NCBI GenBank assembly: GCA_044451945.1
Contig: JBIOKR010000002.1
Span: 4,411 to 68,410 of the forward strand
DNA length: 64,000 nt
Reading direction: 5' to 3'
From: Candidatus Lutacidiplasmatales archaeon
Lineage (GTDB): Archaea; Thermoplasmatota; Thermoplasmata; Lutacidiplasmatales; UBA184
The position numbers were made by a program, and so were the translations under genes. The notes under the pieces were generated by a model, which searched no databases, was not told where the DNA came from, and saw nothing but the letters and a program-made list of their open reading frames with translations. This document shows, in pieces, positions 8,146-24,935 of the stretch; position 1 is the stretch's first letter; each line of letters opens with the position of its first letter.

Positions 8146-8376
8146 GGGGAACTTCCCGGTCCAGAGAATAAGGAGCAGGTCAGGCGGAGTTGACGAGGTG
8201 GTTACTCCCTGGGCTCCTTGCGCTCCTTACGCCAAGGAGGGTACCCACTTGCCACCCCTCTCCCTAATCCTCCCCAAGGAGGCGACCATGGAGACAACTC
8301 TGAGCCGAGGGGCCGAGACGCAGCCGAACGCACTAGGAGGGGGCCGATAGGCCGACCTTCCGAGGAGAAGAGACCG

Positions 8377-9297: not shown

Positions 9298-10194
9298 TCA
9301 ACCCAGGCGGGCCCTCAGGCTCTCGATGTTCGCCCGGAATCGGGAAGGACGGGCCCACGAAGCGTATTCGGTCGGCATCTCGGGCGTCCCGGGGCCTTGG
9401 GCGAGCGCCCGGACGCTCCTGAGGTAGGCCGCCGTCTCCCGGCAGGCGTCGACCGTCGTGACGGGCCCGTGGCCCGGGACGATCTTCCGAGGCGCCGACT
9501 CCTCCATTCGTGCAAGGGCCGTCAGCCAACGATCGACATCCGACGACCCTAGGCTCGGATGGGATCCGACCGTGACGAGATCCCCCGCGAAGTAGACCTC
9601 GGAGTCCGGCACGAAGAGGATGGAGTCGCTCTCGCTGTGGCCCGCCCCTTCGACGAGCATCACGTCGTTCCCCCCGGGATAGACAAAGCGGTCGGTGAAG
9701 AACTCGTCCGGCGGCCGCAGGTTGACCAGGTCGCGCGCGTCGGAGAGATCCCGGCGCGCCGCCGCCTCCTCCTCGAGCTCCTGACGCTCGAGGGGACGCT
9801 GCTCCTCCAGGGCGCGCCGGGCGAGCTGCGCTGTCCCCTGCGACCAGGAGGGGTCGCTGACGGCCGCAGGGATCGACGACCCGCGAGCCACCAGGAGGTC
9901 GTGGGTTCGGCGCGTGCTGCGGATCGTGCACCCGCCGAACACCCGGTTCCCTAGCGTGTGATCGAAGTGCCAGTGGCTGTTCGCCACCTCGAGGGGTTCC
10001 TTTCCGGAGAGGATGCGGGCCGCCACCCGAAGATCCTTGGCGGCCCTCGGGGTCTGGGACGTATCGAAGACCAGGCAGGCCCTCCCCAGGTCGACAATGC
10101 CGCTGTTGCTCATCGCGCTGGAGCCGGCGAGCGGGATCGCGGCCCACACGCCCTCCGCCACCTTCTCGAACCGGTAGACGTCGGAGCGGTGCAT
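9298..10194 (-). CDS. MBL-fold metallo-hydrolase
   Basis: HWHFDH metal-binding motif and a downstream GHG. Start taken at MHRSDVYRF; the ORF extends to 10347 through a low-complexity G/R/P-rich stretch that is probably non-coding. Confidence 0.7.
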   Translation of the reverse strand: MHRSDVYRFEKVAEGVWAAIPLAGSSAMSNSGIVDLGRACLVFDTSQTPRAAKDLRVAARILSGKEPLEVANSHWHFDHTLGNRVFGGCTIRSTRRTHDLLVARGSSIPAAVSDPSWSQGTAQLARRALEEQRPLERQELEEEAAARRDLSDARDLVNLRPPDEFFTDRFVYPGGNDVMLVEGAGHSESDSILFVPDSEVYFAGDLVTVGSHPSLGSSDVDRWLTALARMEESAPRKIVPGHGPVTTVDACRETAAYLRSVRALAQGPGTPEMPTEYASWARPSRFRANIESLRARLG

Positions 10195-10399
10195 CGTGCT
10201 GGTTTCAGCAGTACCCGGCCCCTCGTCTCCCTTGCGGGGGTCCGTGAATCTCGATCCCCGCCCAAGAGGCGGCCTGCGGGAGAGCTGTCCACGGGTACCC
10301 TGGCCCCACCGGCTTCCCCAGCGAACCGGATCCCCTGCGGTGGTCACTACCTTCCACGCGCGGACCGCAGGGTAGTGTGGCCCCCGAACCCCTTCATTG

Positions 10400-10492: not shown

Positions 10493-11509
10493 ATGGAGGG
10501 TCGAAAGCTGCAATTGGCGGGAGGTTCGACGTACGTCATCTCGCTGCCCAAACGCTGGGTGACGCACGCCGGGCTCAAGGCGGGCGACACCCTGTTCGTC
10601 GACACCGAGGCGGACGGGGCGATCTCGGTCCGCTCGCAGGCCGCCACGAAACCGGCGGTCCGTCGCAAGGTCTTCGAGGAGAAGGGCGAGGAGGCCCGGG
10701 AGCACCTCCTTCGCAAGCTGATCGGGGCGTACATCTCGGGGTACGGGCTTATCGAGATCCGTTTCTCGGCCGACAGAGGCCCGTTCGTCCGCCGTGTCTC
10801 CCGGGACTTCTGCCGCCTCGTGGTGGGGCCCGAGGTCGTCGAGGAAGGGCCGAACGCCCTCCTGATCCAGGACCTCTCCGATTCCTCCGAGCTCAGCACG
10901 GAGAAGTGTCTGCGCCGGATGCACCTCGTGGTCCGCGCCATGCTCGACGACGCGATCGTCGCGCTGCGGACGGGCCGCGCGGCGCTCGCCCACGACGTGG
11001 TCCAACGGGACCAGGACGTCGACCGCCTCTACTGGATGGTCGCCAAGCAGTACCACCTCACGCACACCGCCCCCGGGCGGGCGACCGACGGGGAGGCCGT
11101 GGCGGCGATCCACGCCCACCGGCTCGTCGCGAAACTGCTCGAGCGGATCGGCGACCACGCCGAGCGCATCGCGGGCACGTTCTCGACGATTGTCGAAGGA
11201 AAGGTGATCGATTCGAAGCTCGGAAAGGACCTGGAGGAGGCGAACGCCTCTGCGATCGCCATTCTCGACAAGGCGTTCCGGGCCCTCGTGACGGGGAACA
11301 TCGACCTCGCCAACGAGGCGATCGACGCCCGGGGCCCGCACCAGAAGCTCATAGACACGCTCTCGCACCGGGTCGCGACCCGCAAGGGCGAGGAGCTGCT
11401 CGCCCTGGGAGCGGTCGTCGACAGCCTCGGACGGACCGCGAGCTATGCCACCGACATCGCCGAGCAAGCGATCAATCTCGCCGTCCTTCAGGACGGAAAG
11501 CCGTCGTAG
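10493..11509 (+). CDS. AbrB/SpoVT-PhoU fusion regulator, paralog 2
   Basis: N-terminal LQLAGGSTYVISLPKRWV (AbrB swapped hairpin), followed by PhoU repeats. TATA-like 'accatatatg' sits about 40 nt upstream. Confidence 0.8.
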   Translation: MEGRKLQLAGGSTYVISLPKRWVTHAGLKAGDTLFVDTEADGAISVRSQAATKPAVRRKVFEEKGEEAREHLLRKLIGAYISGYGLIEIRFSADRGPFVRRVSRDFCRLVVGPEVVEEGPNALLIQDLSDSSELSTEKCLRRMHLVVRAMLDDAIVALRTGRAALAHDVVQRDQDVDRLYWMVAKQYHLTHTAPGRATDGEAVAAIHAHRLVAKLLERIGDHAERIAGTFSTIVEGKVIDSKLGKDLEEANASAIAILDKAFRALVTGNIDLANEAIDARGPHQKLIDTLSHRVATRKGEELLALGAVVDSLGRTASYATDIAEQAINLAVLQDGKPS

Positions 11510-11519
11510 CGCCCGGGGA

Positions 11520-12536
11520 TCAACGCGGGGACGCTTTCGCCCGGATCTCCGGGGTCGCCGGAAGTGAGGCGAGGCTCGGGGGGGCCTGGGGGAGAATCTT
11601 CGGTACGGCGCCCGAAGTGTCGAGCGTCGTCGTGGGGGGTATCGCCGCAGCGACCGTATCGGCGTCCACCCGGTAGGCGCGGTGCTCCACCGCGTATTCG
11701 AGCGCCCGGTCGGCGAGCTCCACGAGGCGTCTCGGGTTGGCCTGAGCGGCCGAGTTCAGCGCCGCCGCCGCATCCCGGTCGTACGGATAGAGCGGGTCGA
11801 GGTTCTGCACGATCCGCTTGGCGAGCAACTTCTTGGCGAGGAGGAGTGCCGCCTCGTCGATCGACAGGGTCGGCAGGAGGAACGTCCGGTTGATCCGGGA
11901 GCTGAGCGCCGGGTAGTTCGCGCCGAGCGTGACGAGAAAGCTCGGGGTGCAGCCGAACATCACGAGCGCCCCGGGCTTGAGCTCATCGCCGAGCTCCTGC
12001 AGGGCCTTGACGAACAGGTCGGAGTCCGGCATCTTCGCGACGTTCTGGAGATCGTTCAGGAGGAGGAACGACGGCGCGTTCATGTTGAGGGCGGCCGCGA
12101 GGACGTGCCCGGCCTGCCCCGGGTCGTACTTGCCGTCCTTCGACTTCTCGAGGGCGGTCAGCTGACGGTACCACGCCGGGGGGTTGAAGATCTTCGCGAA
12201 CCCCTTGAGATTCTTCGCGGCTTGGAACTCGTGGGCCAGGAGGGGCATGGTCAGGCCGGCTTTCTCGGGGACGTCCAGGTAGACGCAGTAGGCGCCCCGG
12301 TCCTTCGCCTGCGCCTGGGCGAGCCGAAGGCGGTGGGTCTTGCCGGTCCCCAGGCTGCCCACCAGCGCCACCAGGGCCTTGTTCTCCTTCTCGAGGACCT
12401 CGTCCTTGATGGTGTTGAGCGACTCGTCGATCTGAAGGTCGACGTGGAAGACCTCGATGTCCTCGAGGCTGTCGCTCGTCAGGTCTCGGAACGGGTTTCC
12501 CGTGAGACCGTATCGCTCGTACGAACCGCCCGGCAT
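11520..12536 (-). CDS. P-loop NTPase (AAA+-like), function unknown, in operon with the KaiC/FlaH-like gene
   Basis: Walker A GSLGTGKT and Walker-B-like LLLNDL. It lies 14 nt downstream of 12551..13180 on the same strand. Confidence 0.55.
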   Translation of the reverse strand: MPGGSYERYGLTGNPFRDLTSDSLEDIEVFHVDLQIDESLNTIKDEVLEKENKALVALVGSLGTGKTHRLRLAQAQAKDRGAYCVYLDVPEKAGLTMPLLAHEFQAAKNLKGFAKIFNPPAWYRQLTALEKSKDGKYDPGQAGHVLAAALNMNAPSFLLLNDLQNVAKMPDSDLFVKALQELGDELKPGALVMFGCTPSFLVTLGANYPALSSRINRTFLLPTLSIDEAALLLAKKLLAKRIVQNLDPLYPYDRDAAAALNSAAQANPRRLVELADRALEYAVEHRAYRVDADTVAAAIPPTTTLDTSGAVPKILPQAPPSLASLPATPEIRAKASPR

Positions 12537-12550
12537 CGAACCACCCGGAC

Positions 12551-13180
12551 CTACAGCACGCGCCGCCGCAGGTCCATCGCCATCCGTGTGCCATCAAAGT
12601 CATAATACACATTTCGGTCGACGAACTGCCCGTCGATCCATTTGGGAATTCGCAGGAAGCGGACGAGCCCCTCGGGCCCCTCCTTCGAGTGGAACTGGAC
12701 CACCCCATCCGAGAGATGGTTGGTCACCGCCTCGGCCCCGGGAGTGTGGATCCCGCGGTCCGTGGCGAGGAGCACCGTGGTCCCGTGCTCCCGGCAGAGG
12801 CCGCGCAGCCTCCGCATGAGACCGGCGAGGTCGGGCGTCTCGAGCTCGAGCGTGAGCATGGTGAACGAATCGAGCGCGAGGACGCCGTCCGAGCCAGCGA
12901 ACCCCTTGAGGTCGCGCAGCTCGTCGCGCTCCGAGATGTTCAGGCGCTGTGCCGCGTCGCCCGAGGGAACGCCCTCCCGCCGGAAGAGCGCCTCGACCTC
13001 GTCCCGCCCGCGGGTGGTGACGAACGAGACGCCCCCGTCCTGCCGCAGCGCGCTCAGGCAGAGCCTTCGCAGGAAGTAACTCTTGGCCGGATCCGGGCCG
13101 CTCTCGGCGACGAGCACCTGGCCCCCCCGGATCGTGGGGATGAGCGTGTCGAGGCCCGGGAGGTCGATCGGGATGTCCAT
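12551..13180 (-). CDS. RecA-superfamily KaiC/FlaH(ArlH)-like protein with degenerate Walker A
   Basis: Layout matches FlaH/KaiC (LDTLIPTIRGGQVLVAESGPDPAKSYF...VLALDSF). The P-loop is ESGPDPAKS rather than GxxGxGKS. Confidence 0.55.
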   Translation of the reverse strand: MDIPIDLPGLDTLIPTIRGGQVLVAESGPDPAKSYFLRRLCLSALRQDGGVSFVTTRGRDEVEALFRREGVPSGDAAQRLNISERDELRDLKGFAGSDGVLALDSFTMLTLELETPDLAGLMRRLRGLCREHGTTVLLATDRGIHTPGAEAVTNHLSDGVVQFHSKEGPEGLVRFLRIPKWIDGQFVDRNVYYDFDGTRMAMDLRRRVL

Positions 13181-13297
13181 CCCCGCCCCACGGGGTCAGC
13201 CGAGCATAACGATGCTATCGGTACACTACGGAAATGCCCCCCCATCTACGGTATCTATAGGGGGAGCGCGTATCCATCCCCCAAGGCTCGCCCCGGC

Positions 13298-14134
13298 ATG
13301 CGCCCGGTCCGTTCGAACCGCCGCGGGCTCTCCGAGATCGTCGGAACGCTCTTTCTCGTCCTCATCGTCGTCGGGGCGGCGACCGCGTTCGCCGCCTTCG
13401 TAGCGGGCTACCAGAAGCAGCTCCAGGCGGAGCAGCAGGCCGCGCACGAGAGGGCCCTCGAATCGATCCGGGTCCTCCACCTCACCCCGACCCCGAACGG
13501 GACTTCCGGGACCTGGGGGTGGCTCAACTTCTCCCTGGCGAGCCTCGACGTCAATCCGATCATCGTGACGAGCATCTCCGTGAACGACAACCCTGTGGCC
13601 AAGTACAACGTGAGTGGCCTCAACCTCTCGACCGGTACCTTCTGGAGCCAGACCGTCCTGGCCGGCGGGTACCTCTCGCTCTACCCCCGCGAGGCGTTCT
13701 CGGTGAACGTCAGCACCGCGAAGGGGCCGGCCCGCTCCGGTTTCTACGACCCCAACCTCACACTTTCTACCTCGAGCTATCTCAAGGTCGAGCTGTTCAC
13801 CTACAACAGCAACGCGTTCACCCAGACGTTCATCCCGCCGTCCGCGGTCGCCTCGATCAACTACCTGCAGACGTACAACGGCACCAACATCACGAACATC
13901 CCGGTGCTCGATGGGAGCAGCTCGTTCCAGCCGGGCAACGCGACGCTCGTCGCCTGGATCTGGACGGTCCATGAGAGCGCCCCCTCCGTCAAAACCTGGG
14001 GGCTCTCCGGGGAGAAGGTCGAGATGAGCAACCTCACCCGGGGCGGCTCGTACACGGTCGGACTCACTGTCGCCAACTCCGACGGGCTGCTCGGCCTGCT
14101 CAACCCGGCGCTATCGTTCGTCTATTCCGGGTGA
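13298..14134 (+). CDS. Class III signal peptide (type IV pilin/FlaF-G-like) secreted protein
   Basis: N-terminus MRPVRSNRRGLSEIVGTLFLVLIVVGAATAFAAFVAG matches the archaeal prepilin-like processing region. A coiled segment and a sequon-rich beta-rich domain follow. Confidence 0.55.
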   Translation: MRPVRSNRRGLSEIVGTLFLVLIVVGAATAFAAFVAGYQKQLQAEQQAAHERALESIRVLHLTPTPNGTSGTWGWLNFSLASLDVNPIIVTSISVNDNPVAKYNVSGLNLSTGTFWSQTVLAGGYLSLYPREAFSVNVSTAKGPARSGFYDPNLTLSTSSYLKVELFTYNSNAFTQTFIPPSAVASINYLQTYNGTNITNIPVLDGSSSFQPGNATLVAWIWTVHESAPSVKTWGLSGEKVEMSNLTRGGSYTVGLTVANSDGLLGLLNPALSFVYSG

Positions 14135-14161: not shown

Positions 14162-15595
14162 TCAGGCGAAGTAGAGGAAGGCAACGATCGTCACGATGAG
14201 AAGCACGATCGAGTGGGTGAGGCCGTACCGGGCCTTCCCCTCGGTGAACGCCCCGATGATGATTCCGGTGCCGATCGAGTTGATCATCATCAGGTCGAAG
14301 AATCGCTGCTCGAGGGTGCCGAACGCCAGCTTCGGGATCGCGGCGGTTCCGCCGCTCTTGATGGAGGAGAGGGGGTTCCCTCCACCCCCCGAGAAGAAGG
14401 TGAGGCTGACGCCCCCCAAGGAAGGGGCGATGCTGAGCAGCGAGAAGAGGACGGCCATGAGCACCCCGAAAGCCACGTAGAGGACGGCGATCGGAAGGAC
14501 GAGCGCGTTTCGGCGCTCGAGGTCGATCTTGATGAAATCGTCCAAGTCCTTCGCCGCCCGATGGATGACCGACGCGGTCTCGCCGCCGATCGTGGAGGCA
14601 TCGGCGATGAGCTCGGCGTAGCGCGTGATGAGCGGGCTCTTCATCGGCACCGCCATGTTGCGGAGCACCTGGTCGAACGGTCGTCCGATGCGGACCCCGT
14701 CGGCCGCCACCTTGAGCGGCTTCTTCAGGATGTCCTGGTGCGTGGTCGACAGCTCGAGCAGGGCCTTGGCCGGGTCGAGCCCGCCCCGCATGGCGTCCGC
14801 CATCTCGAACAGGAATTGGGCGAACGAGCGCTCAAAGGCCCGCAGCCGGGTGAGCTCCCGGTTCGAGTCGACGGTGAACGCCGTGATGGCCACGAAGAAG
14901 CCCGCGATGACGACGTACTCGGGCGCGAGCAGGGGGAGCCCCGGGGTGCGAAGGACGTAGGTGAGTCCAAAGAGGATGACGAACACCGCGATGATCAGCG
15001 GGACGACGAGGACGAGGTACTCCTTGTTGACCGGGTGCGTGGCGAAGTACTTGTAGAACGCGAACCGCCGGGTGCGCTTGATGTAGAGGATGTACCCGCC
15101 GAACGCCCCGAGGCAGACCACGGCGCCGAGCGCGATGTCGATGACCACGCCTTCGAGGTTGAAGGAGAGCAGTGGACCCGAGGAGGAGCCCCCTGCGACG
15201 GTCGCGAACCCGAAAGAGATCTCGTTCGTGTGTCCGCTCGTGTCCGAGACGCTGATGTTGACGGTGTTGTTCCCGGAGCGCAGCTTGAAGATCGACGGGA
15301 CCTGGTAGGAGAGCTCCTTCGCCGAGATCCGCACGCCGTCGAAGCTCGTGACGTTCACGCCGTTGACGACGATGAAGACGCTCCCGGGATCGATGGTGCC
15401 GTTCGCATCGGAGTAGGTCACCGTGATGTTCGGCGTGAGGGTGTCGATCTGGGACCCGGGCAACGGGGAACTCGGCGTGATCGTGATCGGATTGGCGCTC
15501 GACTGCGCACCCCCCCCGGCGGCGATCGGTCCGGCGAGGAGGAGCCCCAGCGCAGCGATCAGCAGGAGGCTCGCGAGCTTCCTCACCGCGCTCAC
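14162..15595 (-). CDS. FlaJ/TadC-like polytopic membrane protein (T2SS-F domain) with an N-terminal signal peptide and ~150-aa extracellular domain
   Basis: Signal peptide LLIAALGLLLAGPIAAGG, then a sequon-rich soluble domain, then TM helices and a T2SSF-like region. Its start overlaps the upstream TadB-like gene by 4 nt. Confidence 0.6.
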   Translation of the reverse strand: MSAVRKLASLLLIAALGLLLAGPIAAGGGAQSSANPITITPSSPLPGSQIDTLTPNITVTYSDANGTIDPGSVFIVVNGVNVTSFDGVRISAKELSYQVPSIFKLRSGNNTVNISVSDTSGHTNEISFGFATVAGGSSSGPLLSFNLEGVVIDIALGAVVCLGAFGGYILYIKRTRRFAFYKYFATHPVNKEYLVLVVPLIIAVFVILFGLTYVLRTPGLPLLAPEYVVIAGFFVAITAFTVDSNRELTRLRAFERSFAQFLFEMADAMRGGLDPAKALLELSTTHQDILKKPLKVAADGVRIGRPFDQVLRNMAVPMKSPLITRYAELIADASTIGGETASVIHRAAKDLDDFIKIDLERRNALVLPIAVLYVAFGVLMAVLFSLLSIAPSLGGVSLTFFSGGGGNPLSSIKSGGTAAIPKLAFGTLEQRFFDLMMINSIGTGIIIGAFTEGKARYGLTHSIVLLIVTIVAFLYFA

Positions 15596-16548
15596 TCCGC
15601 CCTTCCGTAGGCCATCGAGATCGCGATCGAGGTCGCCGCCACGGCGGCCGGCATGAGACCGTACGTGAGGAGCAGGAGGAGCTCGTTCGCGTCGAGGCCG
15701 GCGGCCGTGCTCCCGAATGCGTTCAAGAGGAACGCCGCGACGGCGATCATCAGGACGCCGACCATCACGAGGCTCACGTACATGTCGACGAACGTCTGCA
15801 GGCGGACGATGAACTCCTTCTGGGCGTCGCGCTTGAGCTTGAGGACGTCCCCGGACTTGGTGCGCAGGTACTCGTCGAGGTCGCCCCCCTGGTGGATCAT
15901 GTTGGCGAGGTCCCAGAGCGATTCTCGAAGGGACGGGGAGGGGGACTCCTTCGCCGTCTCGGCGAGCGCGGTGATGAGGTCCTTTCCCTGGATGTCCGTC
16001 TTGTAGACGATCCGCTTGAACTCCCCGGTCATCTGCGGATCGTGGCGGCGGTTGGCCATCCGACGGACAAGCTCGATCGGGGACATGCCGGTGCTCGCCA
16101 GTACGGACAGCTCGCTCAGCGTGAACGGGAGCTCGCGCTCGAGCTGCGTCTTCCGGTTCGCGATGCGGGTGCTGACGATCGACTGGAAGGCGAGGAGCGT
16201 CGCACCGACGCCGACCAGGGTGATCAGCGCGACGTAGCCGTACCAGAAGGAGACGTGGATGAGGACGGTGAACAGGAAGAGCCCGACCGCCAATACGCCG
16301 ATCCCGGCGATCATCGCCGTGATCAGCATCTCGGCGTAGTGGAGGCCGACGGAGATGTTCACCCCGGCCTGCTTGAGCTGCTCGGCGAGCGATTCCGATT
16401 TGATGCGCTTGTCGAGGCGGTCACCTAGGAGCCGGTAGCAAAAGGCGCGGTACGCCTTGACGAACTGGTCCTCGGAGGGGACCTTCGGCTTGGCGATCGT
16501 GGTCCCGGTCGAACTGACCGCTCCGGAGGCTTCGGCGGGCTCGTACAC
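15592..16548 (-). CDS. FlaJ/TadB-like membrane protein (T2SS-F domain), first half of a split PilC/FlaJ
   Basis: Cytoplasmic helical domain plus TM segments typical of GspF/TadB. Starts 7 nt after the ATPase gene. Confidence 0.6.
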   Translation of the reverse strand: MYEPAEASGAVSSTGTTIAKPKVPSEDQFVKAYRAFCYRLLGDRLDKRIKSESLAEQLKQAGVNISVGLHYAEMLITAMIAGIGVLAVGLFLFTVLIHVSFWYGYVALITLVGVGATLLAFQSIVSTRIANRKTQLERELPFTLSELSVLASTGMSPIELVRRMANRRHDPQMTGEFKRIVYKTDIQGKDLITALAETAKESPSPSLRESLWDLANMIHQGGDLDEYLRTKSGDVLKLKRDAQKEFIVRLQTFVDMYVSLVMVGVLMIAVAAFLLNAFGSTAAGLDANELLLLLTYGLMPAAVAATSIAISMAYGRAE

Positions 16549-16554
16549 GCTCCC

Positions 16555-18378
16555 TCAACTGGCCGCGACCCGGTGCTCCAGGTCGCGAATCGCCCCGGCG
16601 GAATCGATGTAGTAAGAGGCGATCGCGCGGCTCACCTCCTTGAAGTACGAAAGATTCAGCTGGTTCATGAGCTCCAGATAGTGGGCCTTACCGTCCATCG
16701 ATTCCCTGAGCTCGGTGGCAGTGCGCCCCGAGGCCTTGGCGACCTTCTCGAGGACGAAGCTGCGGCCGAGCCAGTCGAACGCGTCCCGGACCGGGTCCCA
16801 CCGGAACACCTCGTTCGTCAGGAGCTCGTTCGTCGCCGCGTCGACCTCGAGGACCTCGGTGATCGTGGTGACGCGACGCACCCGGAGGTCCCGGATCGCC
16901 ACCTGGGCGGGGAAGGCGACCGTGTCCAGGGCCTGGAAGAGGACCCGGGGGATGTTCATCGGCTCGTTTTCCACCCGGTGAAGAAGCTCGCCGATCGAGC
17001 CCGCGTGCACGGTCGACATCGACGCGTGGCCCACCGAGATCGCCTGGAAAAGTGTGAACGCCTCCGCGCCCCGGACCTCTCCCACGATCACGTACTCCGG
17101 GCGCTGGCGCAGCGCGGCCACCAGAAGGTCGAACAGGGTGACGCTGCCCGGGGCCTTGAGCGCCGAGGCGCGGCCCGTGATCCCCGAGACACCGGAAGCG
17201 CCGGCGCCCATGCCGTAACCCGACCGGGCGATCGACTGGATCCAGTTCTCATGGTCGATGTGGATCTCCGGGGTGTCCTCGATCGAGACGATCTTGTCCT
17301 CCGGCCGGATGAACATGCTGATGGCGTTCAGGAGCGTCGTCTTGCCGCTCGCCGTTCCCCCCGAGATCAGGATGGAGCGGTGATTCTCGATGAGCGTCCA
17401 GAAGTAGGCGAGCTGCGCGGGGGACATCGAGCCGAAGCGCATCAGGTCGATCGGGGAGACCGGGTCTTGGGCAAACTTCCGGATGCTGAAGGTGGAGCCC
17501 TTGCGCGTCACCTCCGTCCCGAGGGTCAGGTTGACGCGGCTTCCGTCACGCAGCGTCGCGTCAAGGATCGGCTGGTAGATCGATACGTGCTTCCCTGAGA
17601 TCTGGGCGAGCCTCAGTACGTACTTGTTGAGCTCGAACTCGCTTCCGTACTGTACATTGGAACGAATAGAGCCGAAGACCCGGTGAAAGACGTAGAGCGG
17701 CACCTCGGGCCCGAGGCAGCTGATATCCTCGAGGAACGGGTCACGCATCACCGCGTCCGCCCGTCCCATCCCGACGAAATCGCGTTGGAGGTAGTACATC
17801 ATCACCGGGCGCCGACGCGGCGCCACGTCGATGTCGTAGAGGTCGAGGACGGTGAGGAACCGGCTGTCCAGGTACTTCCGAAGCTCCGGGGACTGGTCGA
17901 GCCCGATGCGCCCGACGACGGGGAGCTCCTCCTGCCCCATGATCACCTCCATCTTGTCCCGGATGGCCGAGATTTTGGCGGACTCGCCCTCGTGGAGCGT
18001 CGGTTCGAGGCAGGTGTACATCCACTCTTCCGAATCGGTATCGAAAGCGATGTGCACGAAGGCGTACGGCGGATTGACCGGATAGGTGACGTTCACCTTC
18101 CGACGGTCGCCCAGAAGTTGCCTACGCATGTAGCCGATCTCGGAGGCGACCAGTACCTTCTCCGAGAGCAACGGCCGCCGGGTGTAGAGGGCGTCGAGCT
18201 TCGCCGATTCCTGTAGCAGCGTGGCCCGGTCCTTCGGCAGGAGCTTGCGGCGCACCGAACGGGCTAAGGCGAGGGGGGAGCCCGTCGAACGATGCCCAAT
18301 TGACGCCTTCGAATCGGCACTCCCGGCCACGTCGCCGAGATACCGGAACGCTCGGTTAAGCGGACCCCACGGAATCAC
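16555..18378 (-). CDS. FlaI/PilB/GspE-family secretion ATPase (607 aa)
   Basis: Walker A GGTASGKTT, Asp box VSIEDTPEI, Walker B/His box ...PEYVIVGEVRGAEAF...VGHASMSTVHA. A Gly/Ser-rich insertion (SGYGMGAGASGVSGITGRASALKAPGS) precedes the TLFDLL helix. Confidence 0.85.
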   Translation of the reverse strand: MIPWGPLNRAFRYLGDVAGSADSKASIGHRSTGSPLALARSVRRKLLPKDRATLLQESAKLDALYTRRPLLSEKVLVASEIGYMRRQLLGDRRKVNVTYPVNPPYAFVHIAFDTDSEEWMYTCLEPTLHEGESAKISAIRDKMEVIMGQEELPVVGRIGLDQSPELRKYLDSRFLTVLDLYDIDVAPRRRPVMMYYLQRDFVGMGRADAVMRDPFLEDISCLGPEVPLYVFHRVFGSIRSNVQYGSEFELNKYVLRLAQISGKHVSIYQPILDATLRDGSRVNLTLGTEVTRKGSTFSIRKFAQDPVSPIDLMRFGSMSPAQLAYFWTLIENHRSILISGGTASGKTTLLNAISMFIRPEDKIVSIEDTPEIHIDHENWIQSIARSGYGMGAGASGVSGITGRASALKAPGSVTLFDLLVAALRQRPEYVIVGEVRGAEAFTLFQAISVGHASMSTVHAGSIGELLHRVENEPMNIPRVLFQALDTVAFPAQVAIRDLRVRRVTTITEVLEVDAATNELLTNEVFRWDPVRDAFDWLGRSFVLEKVAKASGRTATELRESMDGKAHYLELMNQLNLSYFKEVSRAIASYYIDSAGAIRDLEHRVAAS

Positions 18379-18558
18379 CGTATTGTCCGTAGCGCACCGT
18401 CCGCGCCGGTTTCCTACGTTGGCCGGACGGCCGTCTACGGCTACTTCGCCGGCTTACCGTTTCTCTTTCGACCCGGGTTATGGGCGACGGGGCGCCTCCC
18501 CCACCGTGGCGCCGCGAGGCGCCGCGAACAGCGAAGGAAGAAGGAGGAAGGAGAGAGA

Positions 18559-19998
18559 ATGAGAGAAGGAAGAATTCGAAAGATCGTCGCGATTCGGCGG
18601 GCCCGCCTTCGGCGGGATGCGCTGGCCGTGTCGCCGGTGGTCGCCACGTTGATCTTGATCCTCGTGGCGGTCGCGGCGGCGGCCGCGCTGTACCTGTGGC
18701 TCGTGGCATGGCAAGGGAACGTGACGAACGGAGTCGGAACCCCGGGCGCCCAGACGACCCTCTACATCGGCGGTAGCTCGTCGGTGTACCCCTGGTCGCA
18801 GAAGGCCGTGGCGTGGTTCGAACAGAACCAGTCGGATGTCGCGATCAGCCTGAACCAGGGCGGAAGCGGCGCCGGTATGGCCGCGGTCTGCTCGGGCCAG
18901 GTTGACATCGGCGCGTCCTCTTCGCCCCAGACGTTCAGCGCCTTGACGGCGCAATACGGTTGCCCGCAGACGGTCGTCCAAGAGACGGTCGCCTACGACG
19001 CGGTCGACGCGATTGTCCCGTCAGGTAACGTCCACGGACTCGTCAGCATCAGCTGGGACACGATGCAGGCCGTCTACGTCGCCGGCGTCGGGGGAGCCCC
19101 CGTCCCGGTCCAGGCACAGACCAACCTTCAGTCCTCGTCCACCTACGCGATGGACGGATCGGCGATCACCGGCTTCGCGGGCTACGCCGCCCCGGCCGCG
19201 AGCGGGTTCGCGTGGGACCAGATCCCCGCGTGCTCGATCCCCACCGTGGCCACTACGTGCGTTGGCACGACCAATGAAGCCGTGAACGCGGGCGGAATCG
19301 CTGCGGGCGTCACCGCCGCATGCGGTGGAACGTACGCCGGTCCGGCCCTCTGCTACACGGTCGCGGGTTCGCCCTGCGGGTTTGTAGTCTGCGCGGGCGG
19401 AACCGGTGCCGGTACCGCCGCGGGCCAGAACGGAGCGACGATCCACGCCTGGCAGCGCCAGGACTCGGGCGGAACGACCCAGTCGTTCACCGCGCGGCTC
19501 CTCGGCGTGGGCACGTCCTCGGCCGCCTCGACCGCCTCGGTCGGGTTCGGCGGATGCGCCCCCACTGGCCAGCTCACGGACTGCGGGATCGCCGGCTCCC
19601 ACCAGGGATTCGGTAACCCCGGCGTGATCTCCGGCGTCTCCGGAGACAAGGACGGTCTGGGCTACGCGTCGGACGGCCTCGTGGTCGCGTCCGGCTCGGG
19701 CGTGGTCGCGGTGGCCTTCCAAGGAATTGGACAGGCGAGCCCGGTCTTCCCGACGGTCGCATCGACCATCGTCGCGGGCATCGTTGCGGGCAACGGCGGA
19801 ACGTACGGGGCCAACACCTACATCGGCTGGCGCCCGTTCATCTACGTCGAGGAGAAGGCCCCGACGGGTGAGGCGCTCCGGTATCTGCAGTACGTCATGC
19901 AGCCGGGCACCAACCAGGACATCGCCCTGGCCTCGAACGAGCTCAGCCCCTTCCAGCCGGGTCTGGCGGGCCACGTGCCGGTGACACCGATTCCGTAA
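18559..19998 (+). CDS. PstS-like phosphate-binding periplasmic-domain protein with an N-terminal archaeal type IV pilin-like (class III signal) segment
   Basis: N-terminus RRDALAVSPVVATLILILVAVAAAAALYLWL resembles pilin_N (AVSPVIGVIL..). It is followed by YIGGSSSVYPWSQKAVAWFEQNQSDVAISLNQGGSGAGMAAVCSGQVDIGASS, which is the PstS signature. A purine-rich 'aaggaggaagg' lies upstream. Confidence 0.65.
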   Translation: MREGRIRKIVAIRRARLRRDALAVSPVVATLILILVAVAAAAALYLWLVAWQGNVTNGVGTPGAQTTLYIGGSSSVYPWSQKAVAWFEQNQSDVAISLNQGGSGAGMAAVCSGQVDIGASSSPQTFSALTAQYGCPQTVVQETVAYDAVDAIVPSGNVHGLVSISWDTMQAVYVAGVGGAPVPVQAQTNLQSSSTYAMDGSAITGFAGYAAPAASGFAWDQIPACSIPTVATTCVGTTNEAVNAGGIAAGVTAACGGTYAGPALCYTVAGSPCGFVVCAGGTGAGTAAGQNGATIHAWQRQDSGGTTQSFTARLLGVGTSSAASTASVGFGGCAPTGQLTDCGIAGSHQGFGNPGVISGVSGDKDGLGYASDGLVVASGSGVVAVAFQGIGQASPVFPTVASTIVAGIVAGNGGTYGANTYIGWRPFIYVEEKAPTGEALRYLQYVMQPGTNQDIALASNELSPFQPGLAGHVPVTPIP

Positions 19999-20139: not shown

Positions 20140-20526
20140 ATGTCGATATGCGTGGACATGGCTACGTCGATCAGGGGTGGGAGGGTGCTCGACGAGCGCC
20201 TGGCCCGGCTCGGCGGAGAAGACGAGCTCTGCTGTGTGCCGGAGTATCGGGGTCTCGCCAGGGCCGTCCGGGAGTCGGAAGGATTCCCCGCGAGCCTGAA
20301 ACGGGCCAAGGCGCTCGCGGACGAGCACCGCCTTCTCGCGGTCGCACTTCTCAAGCGCCGCAAGGAGCTGTGCGCCTGCGAGATTCAGGCCGCTACCGGT
20401 CTCAGCCACGCCACCGTGAGCCACCACATGCGTGTCCTCGTCGATGCGGGCCTCGTAGAGGAACGCCGGCAAGGGAAGTGGATGTACTATCGACTGGCCG
20501 AGGGAGCCAGGGAGAACTTACCATGA
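20140..20526 (+). CDS. arsR: ArsR/SmtB-family metalloregulator
   Basis: ELCACEIQAATGLSHATVSHHMRVLVDAGLV carries the wHTH and metal-binding Cys. The start may instead be 20158. Overlaps arsM by ATGA. Confidence 0.8.
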   Translation: MSICVDMATSIRGGRVLDERLARLGGEDELCCVPEYRGLARAVRESEGFPASLKRAKALADEHRLLAVALLKRRKELCACEIQAATGLSHATVSHHMRVLVDAGLVEERRQGKWMYYRLAEGARENLP

Positions 20527-21317
20527 CGAAGAAGCAGGGAAATCTGGGCATCAACGAGGAGAGGCACGGCGCGGTCCGAGAGCGATACGGCGGCATCGCC
20601 GAAACTGGTGGATGTTGCGGCACCGGCTCCCCGGGCAGCTGCTGCGGGGACGCATCGGTCTCTTCCGAGCTCGGCTATAGCGCGAAGGAGCTCGAGAGCC
20701 TCCCGGAAGGTGCCAACCTGGGCCTGGGCTGCGGCAATCCGACGGCGCTCCTCGCCCTGAAGCCGGGGGAGGTCGTCCTCGACCTCGGGAGCGGCGCGGG
20801 GATCGACTGCTTCCTCGCGGCGAAGAGGGTCGGCGCCAAAGGCCGCGTCATCGGGGTCGACATGACGCCCGAGATGCTCTCGAAGACGCGGGAGAACGCC
20901 CGCAAGGGCGGATACAGGAACGTCGAGTTCCGGCTCGGGGAGATCGAGCACCTGCCGGTCGCCGACGGGTCCGTCGACGTCGTGATATCGAACTGCGTCA
21001 TCAATCTCGCCCCCGAGAAGGGTCCCGTCTACCGGGAGGCGTACCGGGTCCTCCGCGAGGGGGGGCGGTTCGCCGTCTCGGACGTCGTCGCGACTCGGCC
21101 GATCCGGGCCGCCGACCGGGCGAACCCCGCGCTCTGGAGCGCGTGCTCCTCGGGAGCGCTCGAGGTCAAGAAGGTAAAGTCGCTCCTTCGCGAGGCAGGT
21201 TTCGACAAGGTCGAGATCGAGCTCGCCCGGGGCACCGACACCCCGAGCTCCCTCAAGGACCAGGCATCGCTGGGGGTCGTGTCCGCCAGCATTCGCGCCA
21301 CCAAGACCGGGGGGTGA
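20523..21317 (+). CDS. arsM: Arsenite S-adenosylmethionine methyltransferase
   Basis: Cys-rich N-terminus (GGCCGTGSPGSCCGD) and SAM motif VLDLGSGAGID; C-terminal Cys present. Confidence 0.8.
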   Translation: MTKKQGNLGINEERHGAVRERYGGIAETGGCCGTGSPGSCCGDASVSSELGYSAKELESLPEGANLGLGCGNPTALLALKPGEVVLDLGSGAGIDCFLAAKRVGAKGRVIGVDMTPEMLSKTRENARKGGYRNVEFRLGEIEHLPVADGSVDVVISNCVINLAPEKGPVYREAYRVLREGGRFAVSDVVATRPIRAADRANPALWSACSSGALEVKKVKSLLREAGFDKVEIELARGTDTPSSLKDQASLGVVSASIRATKTGG

Positions 21318-21325
21318 GGCGGAAG

Positions 21326-21775
21326 ATGACTCGCACGGTCCTGTTCATTTGCGTCGAGAACGCCGGCCGCTCCCTCATGGCGGAGGCGATGTTCAACGCC
21401 CACCCTCCCGCCGGCTGGCACGCCATCTCGGCGGGGACCCAGCCGGCCTACGCACCGAACCCGAGGACGGCCACGATGCTCCAGGAGATCGGGCTCGAGA
21501 TCCCGGCCCATCCGCCGACCTTGCTCACCAACGATATGATGACCGAGGCAGGGGCCCGGATCACGATGGGCTGCCTCGACAGCGAAAGCTGCCCGGCGAG
21601 GCTCAAGACCCTCGAGGTGACGGACTGGGCGCTTCCCGACCCCGCGAAACTGGACGACGCCGGCTTCCGGGCGGTCCGGGACGACCTCGCCCGGCGGGTC
21701 GAGGGGCTCTCCCGGGATCTCGCCCTGCGCGACCGGATGCGGCCGCAGTTCGGTAGAAGGGAAACTCCGAGTTGA
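21326..21775 (+). CDS. arsC: Arsenate reductase, LMW protein-tyrosine-phosphatase family
   Basis: VLFICVENAGRS is the CX5R P-loop of LMW-PTP-type ArsC. Confidence 0.75.
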   Translation: MTRTVLFICVENAGRSLMAEAMFNAHPPAGWHAISAGTQPAYAPNPRTATMLQEIGLEIPAHPPTLLTNDMMTEAGARITMGCLDSESCPARLKTLEVTDWALPDPAKLDDAGFRAVRDDLARRVEGLSRDLALRDRMRPQFGRRETPS

Positions 21776-22425
21776 CGCGCCCGCTCCTCGAGCGCTGCGC
21801 CGCTGAGGCGGCCGGAACGTTCCTCCTCGTCGGGATAGGGACCGGAGCGATCGTCGCCGCGGCCAACGCCGGGGGCGTGTCCCAGTGGGTGATGGCCATC
21901 GCGTGGTTCGGGGCGGTCGCGCTCCCCGTCCTGGCGTTTGCGTTCGTGAGCGGCTCCCACATCAACCCGGCGGTCACCCTGAGCCTCGTCGCCGCGCGCC
22001 GATTTCCCCCGAGGGAGGCCCTGCCGTACGTCGGGGCGCAGCTCGTCGGTGCCTTTGCGGGCAGCGCCGTAATTTGGCTCGTCCTCGGGAACGCGGCCCA
22101 CCTGGGGGCCACCCTGCCGAGGAACGGGAACCTGCTCGCGACCTTCGCCCTCGAGTTCGCCTTCACCGCCCTGCTCATACTGACCGTGATGTTTCTCAGC
22201 ACCCCCGGAAAGATCCCCTCGCGATGGGAGCTGCTGCTCCCGGCGGGCGCTGTCGGGCTCTCCACATGGCTCATCGGACCCTGGACCGGCAGTTCCCTCA
22301 ATCCGGCGAGGACCGTCGCCCCGGCGGTGCTCTCGGGGGACTACGCCGGGATCTGGGTCTACTTCCTCGCCGTACCTCTGGCGGCGCTCGCCGTCGCCGT
22401 CACGTTCCGCAAGGCGGCGCCGTAG
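21772..22425 (+). CDS. MIP-family aquaglyceroporin (putative arsenite channel, AqpS-like)
   Basis: Two NPA boxes (HINPAV, SLNPAR) and 6 TM helices. TTG start overlaps the arsC stop (TTGA). Confidence 0.8.
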   Translation: MTRPLLERCAAEAAGTFLLVGIGTGAIVAAANAGGVSQWVMAIAWFGAVALPVLAFAFVSGSHINPAVTLSLVAARRFPPREALPYVGAQLVGAFAGSAVIWLVLGNAAHLGATLPRNGNLLATFALEFAFTALLILTVMFLSTPGKIPSRWELLLPAGAVGLSTWLIGPWTGSSLNPARTVAPAVLSGDYAGIWVYFLAVPLAALAVAVTFRKAAP

Positions 22426-22648: not shown

Positions 22649-23356
22649 CTAGTTCACCGCGAGGTTGGGTTTCTCGCCGAAGCCGGTCGCGCTCGGACGT
22701 CCGCTTCCGTTCAGGGAGAACCCTCTCAGGATCAACCATCCGGCGAGCGCCATCTCTTGGACCGCGATGGGCACGGCCAGAGCGTACTGGAAGCTGCCGA
22801 ACAGCCCCGTCAACCCCGCCCCGAACACGAGAACCGCGCCCGCCATCCCCCAGCCCGAGAGCCAGAGGGGAACGAGCCGGCTTCGGAAGAGGAGGTAGTA
22901 GAACAGCACAGCCCCGACCCCGAAGATGAGGGGGTCCGCGACGAACGCCCAGGTCCCGATTCCCTGCAACACGACCCCCGAGGTCGAGTACGATGGATCG
23001 GGTGGGGATCCCGCACCGACGTAGGCCTGACTCAGCGTGACCAGAAGGAGGGTTCCAACGGCACCTACGACCAGGATGACGGCTTCCACGACCCGGACGC
23101 CCAGGTACCCGGCGGCGATCCCTTCGTCATATCGGCGGAGGATGGGGAACAGGAAGGCGGCGATGAGGACAACGGCGAGCGCCGCTGTCAGTTGAAGCAG
23201 GGCGCCGGCCTTGACCTGGTCGGCATGGGCCGCCGCCTGGGTCAGGTAGTTCGAGGAGGTGCTCGGGGCGGTCAGCGAGGTCGCCGCCAGCGATGCGACC
23301 GTCGCGAGGACGAAGAGCCCTCCGACCACGATGGCGGTCTTCCGTGCGGCGTCCAT
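22649..23356 (-). CDS. Hypothetical polytopic membrane protein
   Basis: 235 aa with about 6 hydrophobic helices and no recognisable catalytic motif. Confidence 0.45.
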   Translation of the reverse strand: MDAARKTAIVVGGLFVLATVASLAATSLTAPSTSSNYLTQAAAHADQVKAGALLQLTAALAVVLIAAFLFPILRRYDEGIAAGYLGVRVVEAVILVVGAVGTLLLVTLSQAYVGAGSPPDPSYSTSGVVLQGIGTWAFVADPLIFGVGAVLFYYLLFRSRLVPLWLSGWGMAGAVLVFGAGLTGLFGSFQYALAVPIAVQEMALAGWLILRGFSLNGSGRPSATGFGEKPNLAVN

Positions 23357-24047: not shown

Positions 24048-24935
24048 ATGCTCGATCCTTCTCGCTGGGACGACGGGGCGATCCCGCTCGCTCCGCCGCT
24101 TCCCTCCCCGGAGCTCCTCGAGGAGCCTGACCTATCGGCACCGTCGCCGCCCCCGGAGGAGCTCGCCCGGATTGTCCGCAAGCGGCCGGGGGCGCGCCGA
24201 CGCAACCCGGCGACGCGCATCCTTCCCAGCGAACCGGCGCTCTTCGGCTGGCTCGCCGACCGTTTTTCCCCCGGGGAGGCGACCCTGTGGGCCGGCTCTT
24301 CCGCCGCGATCGAGCCGATGCTCGAGATGCTCTACGCCGGTTGCGCGCTCGCGGACGGGAGGGTCTCGCTGCTCGAGGGAGCGAACCGGTTCCATCCATA
24401 CCGCATCGGCGAGCGGGGCCGCAATCTCGGCGTCGCTCCCGAGGAGGTCCTCGAAAGGGTGCGGCTCGCCCGCGCGTTCACCGCCTACCAGCTGGTGGCG
24501 CTGGTCGACGCCTGGTCGAAGGAGGCCAAACGGAACCGGCCGACGCTGCTCGTCGCCCACGACCTTCCGGCGCTGTTCTTCACCGAGGAGGTCCCCGAGG
24601 CGGAGCGCGCTCCGCTCCTCACCTACGTTGCCGAGCGACTCTCGGAGGTCGTGAGCGAGACCGGTCTTCCGCTCCTCCTGACGCTCTCCGGCCCGCTCTC
24701 GCGCTTTCCCGGGCTCACGGAGAAGGGCCCGAGGTTCTTCGACTGGGTCCGGTTCCTGCCGGCCGGTGAGACCGGGATGAACGTCGAGGCGTTCCGCGAC
24801 GCTTCCCGACTGCGCTTGGTCACCCGGAGCGATGGGCAGCGCGGACTCGAGGAGTTCGCTTCCCAGGAGAATCAGGAGGTGATCATGTGGGGCGTACCGT
24901 CCCGACGTACCGCCAGGCGCTCGAGGAGCGGATGA
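24048..24935 (+). CDS. Hypothetical protein, possibly a RecA-superfamily (KaiC/RadB-like) homolog lacking a P-loop
   Basis: TLWAGSSAAIEPMLEMLYAGCALADGRVSLLE...TLLVAHDLPALFF resembles a RecA core with a degenerate Walker A. Confidence 0.35.
   Translation: MLDPSRWDDGAIPLAPPLPSPELLEEPDLSAPSPPPEELARIVRKRPGARRRNPATRILPSEPALFGWLADRFSPGEATLWAGSSAAIEPMLEMLYAGCALADGRVSLLEGANRFHPYRIGERGRNLGVAPEEVLERVRLARAFTAYQLVALVDAWSKEAKRNRPTLLVAHDLPALFFTEEVPEAERAPLLTYVAERLSEVVSETGLPLLLTLSGPLSRFPGLTEKGPRFFDWVRFLPAGETGMNVEAFRDASRLRLVTRSDGQRGLEEFASQENQEVIMWGVPSRRTARRSRSG

Follow-up and report, generated by a model that had tools for sequence, protein, structure and literature searches.

A predicted phosphate-binding PstS-pilin fusion protein encoded with type IV filament assembly genes in archaea

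In Sulfolobus and Saccharolobus the sugar-binding proteins GlcS, AraS and TreS carry class III signals and belong to the bindosome, together with the pilin-like proteins BasABC, the ATPase BasE and the membrane protein BasF. The bindosome has been a hypothesis since about 2007, based on one crenarchaeal order, and to our knowledge its structure has never been seen. A recent preprint (bioRxiv 10.64898/2026.04.22.720090) counts 4364 binding proteins with class III signals across archaea, including euryarchaea, proposes that such proteins may functionalise type IV filament machines, and finds their genes usually with ABC transporters, not with filament clusters; its text makes no mention of phosphate, PstS or PF12849. 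In the Iho670 adhesion filament of Ignicoccus hospitalis (PDB 5KYH, 3J1R) the mature helix VSPVIATLLLILIAVAAAVLLYTWV forms the filament core. Here we describe a gene of a Candidatus Lutacidiplasmatales archaeon whose product, termed PstS-pilin, combines a helix of this kind with a PstS-type phosphate-binding fold and is encoded next to genes for type IV filament assembly. The DNA analysed, referred to as the window, is a stretch of 64,000 nucleotides from contig JBIOKR010000002.1 (assembly GCA_044451945.1, positions 4,411 to 68,410); all coordinates count from its first letter.

The PstS-pilin open reading frame (ORF) begins with an ATG at 18559 and its stop codon ends at 19998, and the translation matches that quoted in an earlier sequence-only reading of this stretch, which had proposed a fusion of PstS and pilin linked to adjoining type IV filament machinery. 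The analysis presented here supports that proposal. The protein is identical to MFI5417404.1 (P0001) from a 'Candidatus Lutacidiplasma' metagenome-assembled genome (MAG), which NCBI names 'PstS family phosphate ABC transporter substrate-binding protein', and most of its homologs are named 'flagellin-like protein' by JGI; this split in naming mirrors the two halves of the protein. Both halves hold up, and the protein is no isolated case but belongs to a large family. There are at least 288 homolog clusters, and a profile search of 1.84 billion representatives returned 116 family representatives (at 50% identity) with E<=1e-30. Among 136 newly listed representatives, 98 plainly have an N-terminus of class III type with GGS(T/S)TVY after it, and family members occur in cultured Methanosarcina. 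Eight longer members of 578-727 residues (P0010, P0039, P0057, P0086, P0098, P0102, P0106 and P0111) gave profile matches in two stretches, with one local alignment covering only 42-65% of the query, and their PstS fold seems to be interrupted by either a far larger insertion or an additional domain. Two short contigs with a PstS-pilin gene (2.7 and 3.0 kb) come from an Acidimicrobiales bin (L037) and an Acidobacteriaceae bin (L044), and most likely reflect binning errors rather than an occurrence in bacteria.

The Pfam model PBP_like_2 matched PstS-pilin at 44.5 bits (cut-off 27), within residues 62-211 only. An AlphaFold2 model, built on an alignment of 56 family members, had a mean predicted local distance difference test score (pLDDT) of 84.2 and a predicted template modelling score of 0.79, and showed a helix (residues 26-56) that a short linker connects to an α/β domain of two lobes, starting at residue 66. 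Foldseek comparison with the PDB gave phosphate-binding proteins of the PstS/PBP type as all of the best 41 matches (probability 1.0), with E-values down to 4.9e-13 and a target-normalised TM-score of up to 0.80, the latter for PBP-1 of Clostridium perfringens. A profile search of PDB sequences aligned four collinear segments (67-163, 281-300, 338-376 and 410-445) to PBP-1 (4Q8R); the PstS fold therefore spans the whole protein. Residues 176-295 form a conserved, Cys-rich insertion of about 120 residues with lower pLDDT, and lobe 2 comes after it. Ten cysteines are present in the protein, six of them invariant. The PstS fold proposed from the sequence is thus supported. The 'long Gly/Ala/Thr/Cys-rich C-terminal region' of the same proposal is in fact the Cys-rich insertion together with lobe 2, the fold continuing to about residue 460.

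The phosphate ligands of PBP-1 are S11, T12, S13, S41, S59, R125, S129, G130 and T131 (PMC5381212). These map to family positions S73, T74, S75, S/T103, S121, R300, S304, G305 and T306, and all nine are invariant or at least 82% conserved, as judged by column conservation across the PstS-pilin family. The anion site of the window protein comprises S73, S74, S75, S103, S121, R300, D302, (S303)/G304, G305 and T306, and the R300-D302 pair is conserved. The position of Asp56 in Escherichia coli PstS is taken by Ser121, which makes the site 'S-type'. In characterised relatives, sites of this type show micromolar rather than nanomolar phosphate affinity (PMC13614923) and weaker arsenate discrimination, which is only about 150-fold in PBP-1 (PMC5381212).

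The N-terminus is of the pilin type. The sequence-only reading had called for alignment to archaeal pilin models, and of the two models compared TIGR02537 (arch_flag_Nterm) was passed marginally, at 20.5 bits against a cut-off of 20 over residues 23-49, whereas Pfam Pilin_N was not; the Methanosarcina siciliae homolog reached 28 bits with TIGR02537. Across 120 homologs a variable basic n-region is followed by the almost invariant consensus [KR][AG]-VSPVVATLILIL[IV]AVAAAAALYLWLVAWQGGVT, in which [KR][AG]/VSPVV (the slash marking the predicted cut) has the form of a canonical class III site. Residues 24-48 are identical at 18 of 25 positions (72%) to residues 1-25 of the mature Iho670 and 3J1R filament core, and a profile match of PstS-pilin covers Iho670 residues 1-35 (E=3.5e-7). 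The alignment begins precisely at the first residue of the deposited chains, opposite V24, and cleavage is therefore predicted between A23 and V24. These results agree with the pilin-like N-terminus read from the sequence.

The hydrophobic helix is by far the most conserved part of the protein. Identity to the window protein was 93.5% in the helix (24-56) compared with 31.5% in the n-region (1-22), 60.8% in lobe 1 (66-175), 35.6% in the insertion (176-295) and 50.0% in the remainder (296-479). The helix is invariant or nearly so across 56 homologs that are themselves 45-55% identical overall. As a control we took the transmembrane anchor of canonical PstS in the same genomes as the orthologs, and found that it is not conserved. 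A frozen helix beside a variable anchor implies that the helix makes specific contacts beyond spanning the membrane, plausibly with the peptidase, the platform or other helices in helix-helix packing. Right behind the helix most class III PstS proteins across the family (P0174-P0309), including those of low-GC lineages, carry a W-Q-x-G-W-Q or W-L-V-A-W-Q motif (residues 47-52 in the window protein), and Y-Q-K-Q-x-Q is conserved at the equivalent place in the proteins that we call pilin2 (below); the W-Q motif is possibly a membrane-interface or subunit-contact region. Searches with the helix by itself gave nine candidates, three of them fragments, and were uninformative on other cargo, while a helix pattern search gave 599 matches that were uninterpretable since the Ala-rich pattern is unspecific.

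The possibility of a Sec, Tat or lipobox signal was rejected. Some 30 hydrophobic residues come after the cleavage motif, no RR-x-F-L motif is conserved and no Cys follows the hydrophobic region; reading of the PstS-pilin sequences gave no AxA site after that region, no lipobox and no conserved twin-Arg motif. An ordinary Sec/Tat or membrane-anchor N-terminus, which would have spoken against the pilin proposal, is thus not borne out by sequence and conservation.

We surveyed synteny by scanning GTDB species genomes and by looking up individual homologs. PstS-pilin closes a block of eight genes that encode, in order, an AbrB-PhoU protein, an AAA+ protein, an ArlH/KaiC-like protein, pilin2, two platform proteins, a filament ATPase and PstS-pilin, the last two genes being divergently adjacent. 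The block is complete, with its gene order unchanged, in 27 GTDB species representatives and two metagenome contigs, all Thermoplasmata, with varying flanks. Related gene sets recur in Nitrososphaerales and Methanosarcinales, so that three archaeal lineages are represented.

The sequence-only reading had noted that no pstCAB genes are nearby. That is correct for the window, as judged by tblastn, but does not extend to many orthologous loci, which are directly flanked by pst genes. At seven Thermoplasmata loci pstS2 lies directly downstream of PstS-pilin, with pstC-pstA where the contig reaches (and pstB in L036). At five further Thermoplasmata loci a pstB-like gene lies directly upstream of the PhoU gene of the block, giving 12 loci altogether with flanking pst genes. 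In MAGs labelled Nitrososphaerales or Thaumarchaeota the same gene set adjoins PstS2, and in one of them PstB (367.6 bits, cut-off 343). In M. siciliae, for which a complete genome from culture is available, and in Methanolobus psychrotolerans, the genes for class III PstS, PstC, PstA, filament ATPase, platform and platform form a co-directional run (PstC 299.6 bits, cut-off 196; PstA 261 bits, cut-off 193), in which class III PstS is the sole binding-protein gene. ArlH-like and pilin2-like genes follow the run, with AbrB-PhoU nearby. The neighbouring PstS2 of Thermoplasmata is membrane-anchored and Asp-type and scored 306 bits (cut-off 205). An origin of PstS-pilin as a recent duplicate of this resident PstS was rejected, as PstS2 is of the TIGR00975 type and Asp-type, and the pilin form is TIGR02136-like and Ser-type.

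In M. psychrotolerans (L061, 5739-6863 (-) and 1-122 (-)) we also observed a second class III PstS-like gene with the N-terminus NDIA/VSPIVATLVLLVV.... Genes for a Phosphonate-bd protein and a sensor histidine kinase stand beside the cluster, as do two more AbrB-PhoU genes. By its gene content this locus is a dense phosphorus-acquisition island.

Table 1. Positions of PstS-pilin, its parts and the surrounding features in the window
Feature	Position	Strand	Remarks
AbrB/MazE-like + PhoU-domain protein	10493-11509	+	PhoU 80.1, MazE_antitoxin 31.7, TIGR02135 77.9 bits; block edge
AAA+ P-loop protein	11520-12536	-	AAA_22 / Hda-like N-terminus; AAA_22 26.2 bits, Hda 26.8 bits
Short KaiC/ArlH(FlaH)-like ATPase	12551-13180	-	DUF7125 type, 209 aa; KaiC ATPase domain 20.5 bits; FlaH match weak
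Two CTACGG boxes, 20 nt apart	13226-13261		KaiC-like/pilin2 divergent intergenic region
Pilin2, second class III signal protein	13301-14134	+	277 aa; RRG/LSEIVGTLFLVLIVV..., Glu at +3, 10 N-glycosylation sequons
Platform protein, C-terminal half	14162-15595	-	One T2SSF domain, 47.1 bits; UpsF 284-414
Platform protein, N-terminal half of FlaJ/UpsF-like protein	15592-16548	-	One T2SSF domain, 51.9 bits; ArlJ 8-209, UpsF 40-223
Type IV filament assembly ATPase (FlaI/afGspE-like)	16555-18378	-	T2SSE 114.6 bits
Conserved repeat CACGGAATCACCGTATTGTCCGTAGC (ACGGA/CCGTA boxes)	18368-18393		Just upstream of TATA-like box of ATPase operon (18354-18363)
PstS-pilin promoter block TTACCGTTTCTCTTTCGACCCGG and TATA-like GGTTATGGG	18454-18484	+	Conserved across loci
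PstS-pilin	18559-19998	+	479 aa; class III signal-like N-terminus and PstS-fold phosphate-binding domain (predicted)
Arg-rich n-region	18559-18627	+	Residues 1-23; predicted removal by class III signal peptidase after Ala23
Hydrophobic helix VSPVVATLILILVAVAAAAALYLWLVAWQGNVT	18628-18726	+	Residues 24-56; putative filament-core helix
PstS fold, S-type anion site, Cys-rich insertion	18754-19938	+	About residues 66-460; profile alignment to 4Q8R/4GD5, Foldseek, column conservation
ArsR	20140-20526	+	Directly downstream of PstS-pilin
Arsenite methyltransferase ArsM	to 21317	+	318.8 bits, cut-off 263
LMWP-type ArsC	to 21775	+	
MIP channel	21772-22425	+	

The adjoining assembly machinery that had been proposed from the sequence was confirmed by the T2SSE match of the ATPase and the T2SSF domains of two platform genes (Table 1). 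The ATPase shares 45-56% identity with its counterparts in the Methanosarcina, Nitrososphaerales and L063 clusters, and its best PDB match is afGspE (2OAP, 2e-111) with FlaI behind (7e-76). The mechanical ORF starts at a GTG at 18378; a GTG at 18330 gives a protein of 591 residues, compared with 590-592 in homologs, and is the likely start as judged from these lengths. This start places the TATA-like box about 25-30 nt upstream, which suggests a leaderless transcript. The C-terminal platform half opens with a signal peptide, and roughly its first 150 residues (1-150) make up an extracellular domain ahead of T2SSF, with a weak Big_1 (Ig-like) match in the Methanosarcina and Methanolobus orthologs. 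Such a domain is unusual on a FlaJ-type platform and might contact the PstS heads or the cell envelope.

Pilin2 fell just under the model cut-offs (Pilin_N 22.6 bits, TIGR02537 19.4 bits). Its N-terminus (RRG/LSEIVGTL...) is conserved in 29 loci and its C-terminus is variable and adhesin-like, with lengths of 260-930 residues; orthologs are found in Methanosarcina, Methanolobus and Nitrososphaerales. A pattern search of the window found no further 'VSPV' pilins. Orthologs of the short KaiC-like ATPase in L052 and L060 match ArlH at 44 bits, and DUF7125 is found at homolog loci. The AAA+ gene is always present in the Thermoplasmata block and the AbrB-PhoU gene is adjacent in nearly all loci; the AbrB-PhoU protein is a candidate phosphate-responsive regulator.

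We rejected an archaellum reading of the cluster. The ATPase scored 397 bits with the FlaI model NF058587, below its cut-off of 550, and is closer to afGspE; the platform is split, and no ArlF/G/C/D/E/X-like matches were found among the cluster genes. The ArlH-like gene of the block bears only a weak resemblance to ArlH. Lutacidiplasmatales have been reported to be without archaellum genes (PMC9287336).

The flanking genes are unrelated to the cluster and encode a DUF981 membrane protein (8218-9153, +) and a metallo-beta-lactamase-fold protein (9298-10347, -) on one side, and a DUF4386 protein (22649-23356, -) and a Rad51/RecA-like protein (24048-24935, +) on the other. Rfam and tRNA scans of the window gave no match and no tRNA gene.

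The ACGGA/CCGTA repeat at the ATPase promoter is visible in most loci. Of 36 intergenic regions, 21 contain CCGTAG where 4.5 would be expected, and 15 of the 28 KaiC-like/pilin2 regions contain TACGGA where the expected number is 1.3. The heptamer TCCGTAG has seven sites in the window, where it is too short for significance, and only its positional conservation across loci counts. TACGG repeats also lie upstream of canonical pstS in L003, L012 and L013, a weak signal from six sequences only. The presence of the boxes in both divergent promoter regions suggests co-regulation of the block; as a candidate operator they would be bound by a regulator dedicated to the cluster, for which the AbrB-PhoU protein is a possibility. 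PstS-pilin has its own promoter block, which is followed by an untranslated leader of about 60-75 nt ending in a purine-rich run (18543-18555) that resembles a Shine-Dalgarno sequence.

An arsenic-detoxification set (20140-22425, +) lies downstream of PstS-pilin. ArsC, MIP or ArsM was found within 7 kb downstream of PstS-pilin in seven loci including that of the window. ArsC orthologs (62-67% identical) lie 1.5-7 kb downstream, with ArsM in L016 and L027, with MIP in L035 and L041, and alone in L019; in the distant locus L063 a MIP gene and an LMWP gene follow immediately. The arsenic genes could be a response to arsenate that slips into the cell by way of an S-type phosphate system.

Collectively, we propose that PstS-pilin is a cargo subunit, or the main subunit, of a dedicated bindosome-like type IV filament system that captures phosphate, and we assign this proposal a probability of about 0.58. 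[quoted passage not shown] The FlaI/GspE-like ATPase and the split FlaJ-like platform would then lift the mature helix from the membrane and stack it with pilin2 into a filament or a short pseudopilus, with the ArlH/KaiC-like and AAA+ proteins as putative accessories. In this way the PstS heads would be displayed outside the cell, where they are predicted to bind orthophosphate through the S-type site, in which Ser replaces the Asp of the low-barrier hydrogen bond. The heads may hand phosphate to PstCA(B), either directly or via the canonical membrane-anchored PstS of the Asp type with its higher affinity. The AbrB-PhoU protein and the CTACGG boxes probably couple expression to phosphate status. 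The recurring downstream ArsC, MIP and ArsM genes fit an importer that admits arsenate.

Several observations weigh against this proposal. PstS-pilin stays below the cut-offs of the PstS family model TIGR02136 (76.2 bits, cut-off 206.6) and of TIGR00975 (30.4 bits, cut-off 205), and also of Pilin_N (13.1 bits, cut-off 25.2); by hidden Markov model cut-offs alone its identity is a marginal case, which is settled by the other evidence. The window copy reads RRDALA/VSPVV, with an atypical Leu instead of Lys/Arg at -2, and it keeps eight of the nine ligands, having Gly at 304 (the equivalent of S129) with Ser at 303. A head of 45 kDa is very large for a major pilin. Genes for a signal peptidase (motif search) and for pstC/A/B (tblastn) were found neither in the window nor in the conserved block, and in roughly two thirds of the Thermoplasmata loci no pst gene lies closer than 10 kb. 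Orphan copies of PstS-pilin without nearby machinery occur in L009, L011 and L043; each of these has a close PhoU-domain gene, and the copies are possibly second cargo genes for machinery encoded elsewhere. Finally, archaeal AbrB-PhoU proteins have paralogs and their role as regulators in phosphate control is putative; the window itself contains a second AbrB/MazE-like + PhoU gene (7033-8145, -), 2.3 kb upstream of that of the cluster and only about 27% identical to the cluster type.

An alternative that we consider unlikely is an adhesive or structural pilus with a co-opted PstS fold as its head, which feeds no transporter and either attaches to phosphate-bearing surfaces (Fe/Al-phosphate minerals, organic phosphates) or has no ligand. 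The near-invariant helix with its 72% identity to the core helix of an adhesion filament argues for a true polymer. The missed PstS cut-offs, the 120-residue insertion, the lack of nearby permease genes at most Thermoplasmata loci including the window, and the surface appendages of Pseudomonas aeruginosa, which contain PstS and are implicated in adhesion (PMC2242829, PMC3949141), also favour a pilus of this sort. However, all nine phosphate ligands are still under selection, the only binding protein encoded in the Methanosarcinales run with pstC and pstA is the class III PstS, and pst genes flank the block at a dozen Thermoplasmata loci.

In a bolder version of our proposal, which we regard as quite unlikely, an archaeal phosphate importer would include the filament machine as an integral, mechanically active component. 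The FlaI-like ATPase would extend and retract a pseudopilus built of PstS heads, or would keep assembling it and turning it over, and phosphate caught at a distance from the membrane would be moved physically to PstCA. Such a mechanism would account both for the filament ATPase and platform genes that come after pstC-pstA in one co-directional run in Methanosarcinales and for the frozen helix. If true, a filament motor would be coupled to solute uptake in a way that is new, in at least three archaeal phyla.

It is also conceivable, though improbable, that PstS-pilin is a minor subunit that senses external phosphate and signals its level to the filament machine as well as the PhoU, KaiC-like and AAA+ proteins, switching a pilus built of pilin2 on or off in the control of adhesion or biofilm under phosphorus stress. 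In bacteria the PstS-PstCAB-PhoU system doubles as the Pho sensor, and the putative regulatory or ATPase accessory genes (AbrB-PhoU, ArlH/KaiC-like and AAA+) are fixed parts of the block, with pilin2 supplying a second class III protein with ten sequons and a variable adhesin-like C-terminus. Against a sensor stand the strongly conserved promoter and Shine-Dalgarno-like leader that PstS-pilin has for itself and a helix that is more conserved than that of pilin2, and the co-directional run with pstC and pstA points to transport.

Binding of another tetrahedral oxyanion, arsenate or similar, by a system for arsenic sensing or handling is very improbable. The Asp on which arsenate discrimination depends is missing from the S-type site, discrimination is only about 150-fold in PBP-1 (PMC5381212), and ArsR-ArsM-ArsC-MIP follow directly in the window with ArsC/MIP recurring in six other loci; yet the ligand set is the same as in phosphate-bound PBP-1, the association with pstC, pstA, pstB and phoU is broader than that with ars genes, and most loci have no ars genes.

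An ordinary membrane-anchored binding protein, whose helix is a transmembrane anchor or Sec signal and whose place among pilus genes is coincidental, can hardly account for the data, for although archaeal binding proteins are often anchored in this way, as is the canonical PstS2 next door, and Pilin_N stays below threshold, the helix is 93.5% conserved compared with 36-61% elsewhere and with a variable PstS2 anchor, the hydrophobic stretch begins immediately behind the [KR][AG] site and aligns from residue 1 with the helix of a filament core, and synteny with the machinery holds in about 29 loci of three lineages.

If our proposal of a phosphate-capturing filament system is correct, it describes a second, phosphate-specific version of the bindosome in which binding protein, motor, platform, pilin2 and a PhoU-type regulator form one conserved module, and it suggests that these archaea carry phosphate traps on a filament-like surface structure. 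The module is found in abundant acid-soil archaea, namely Lutacidiplasmatales, other Thermoplasmata and MAGs labelled Nitrososphaerales or Thaumarchaeota, and may be an adaptation that lets them obtain phosphate from settings in which it is tightly sorbed, for example acid soils. In cultured Methanosarcina and Methanolobus it is joined to pstC-pstA, which offers a testable and experimentally accessible genotype; genetic tools exist for the genus Methanosarcina. The results also allow annotations to be corrected for hundreds of proteins that at present go under either 'PstS family' or 'flagellin-like protein'.

Among known systems, canonical PstSCAB-PhoU shares with this locus the binding-protein fold, an adjoining PhoU-domain gene and, in many genomes, adjacent pstC/pstA/pstB. 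It differs in that the window is without pstCAB, that the PstS equivalog and subfamily cut-offs are failed, and that in the Methanosarcina run the place after pstA, usually taken by pstB, is occupied by a filament ATPase gene. S-type phosphate-binding proteins (C. perfringens PBP-1 4Q8R, Borrelia burgdorferi PstS and Synechocystis SphX) have the same fold, Ser/Thr-rich ligands and Ser in place of the low-barrier-hydrogen-bond Asp. These are, however, soluble or lipid-anchored bacterial proteins of 240-300 residues encoded in pst operons, whereas PstS-pilin has a pilin helix, a Cys-rich insertion of 120 residues and ten cysteines. The PstS/DING appendages of P. aeruginosa likewise place phosphate-binding proteins on extracellular appendages under phosphate limitation (PMC2242829, PMC3949141), but the bacterial PstS has no pilin N-terminus and a different assembly route. 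Iho670 differs from PstS-pilin in having another globular domain and no known role in ligand binding or transport.

Literature searches for bindosomes, PstS and pilins in connection with phosphate turned up no account of a PstS-pilin system; Makarova et al. 2016 make no mention of phosphate, and the Lutacidiplasmatales and Gagatemarchaeaceae genome papers do not mention pili. The novelty that the sequence-only reading expected accordingly stands for the specific system; the general idea is already present in the bindosome work and in the 2026 preprint. What is new is the phosphate-specific module with dedicated machinery and broad distribution. In contrast to the general case described in the preprint, PstS-pilin is a fixed member of a filament cluster.

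The closest likeness is to the Bas bindosome, in that a FlaI-type ATPase, a FlaJ-type membrane protein and one or more extra pilin-like proteins are thought to assemble the binding protein at the cell surface. The window ATPase and platform score far below the cut-offs of the BasE model (169 bits, cut-off 1000) and the BasF model (20.6, cut-off 1300), and the system is therefore an analogue or distant homologue of the Bas system, not its orthologue. The ligand class, by inference, is phosphate here and sugars in Sulfolobus. The Sulfolobus binding proteins are encoded away from basEF, whereas the PstS-pilin gene lies inside the machinery locus and in Methanosarcinales is also found with permease genes. 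Furthermore, the platform is here split into two genes, the ArlH/KaiC-like, AAA+ and AbrB-PhoU genes are added, and the hosts are Thermoplasmata, Nitrososphaerales and Methanosarcinales.

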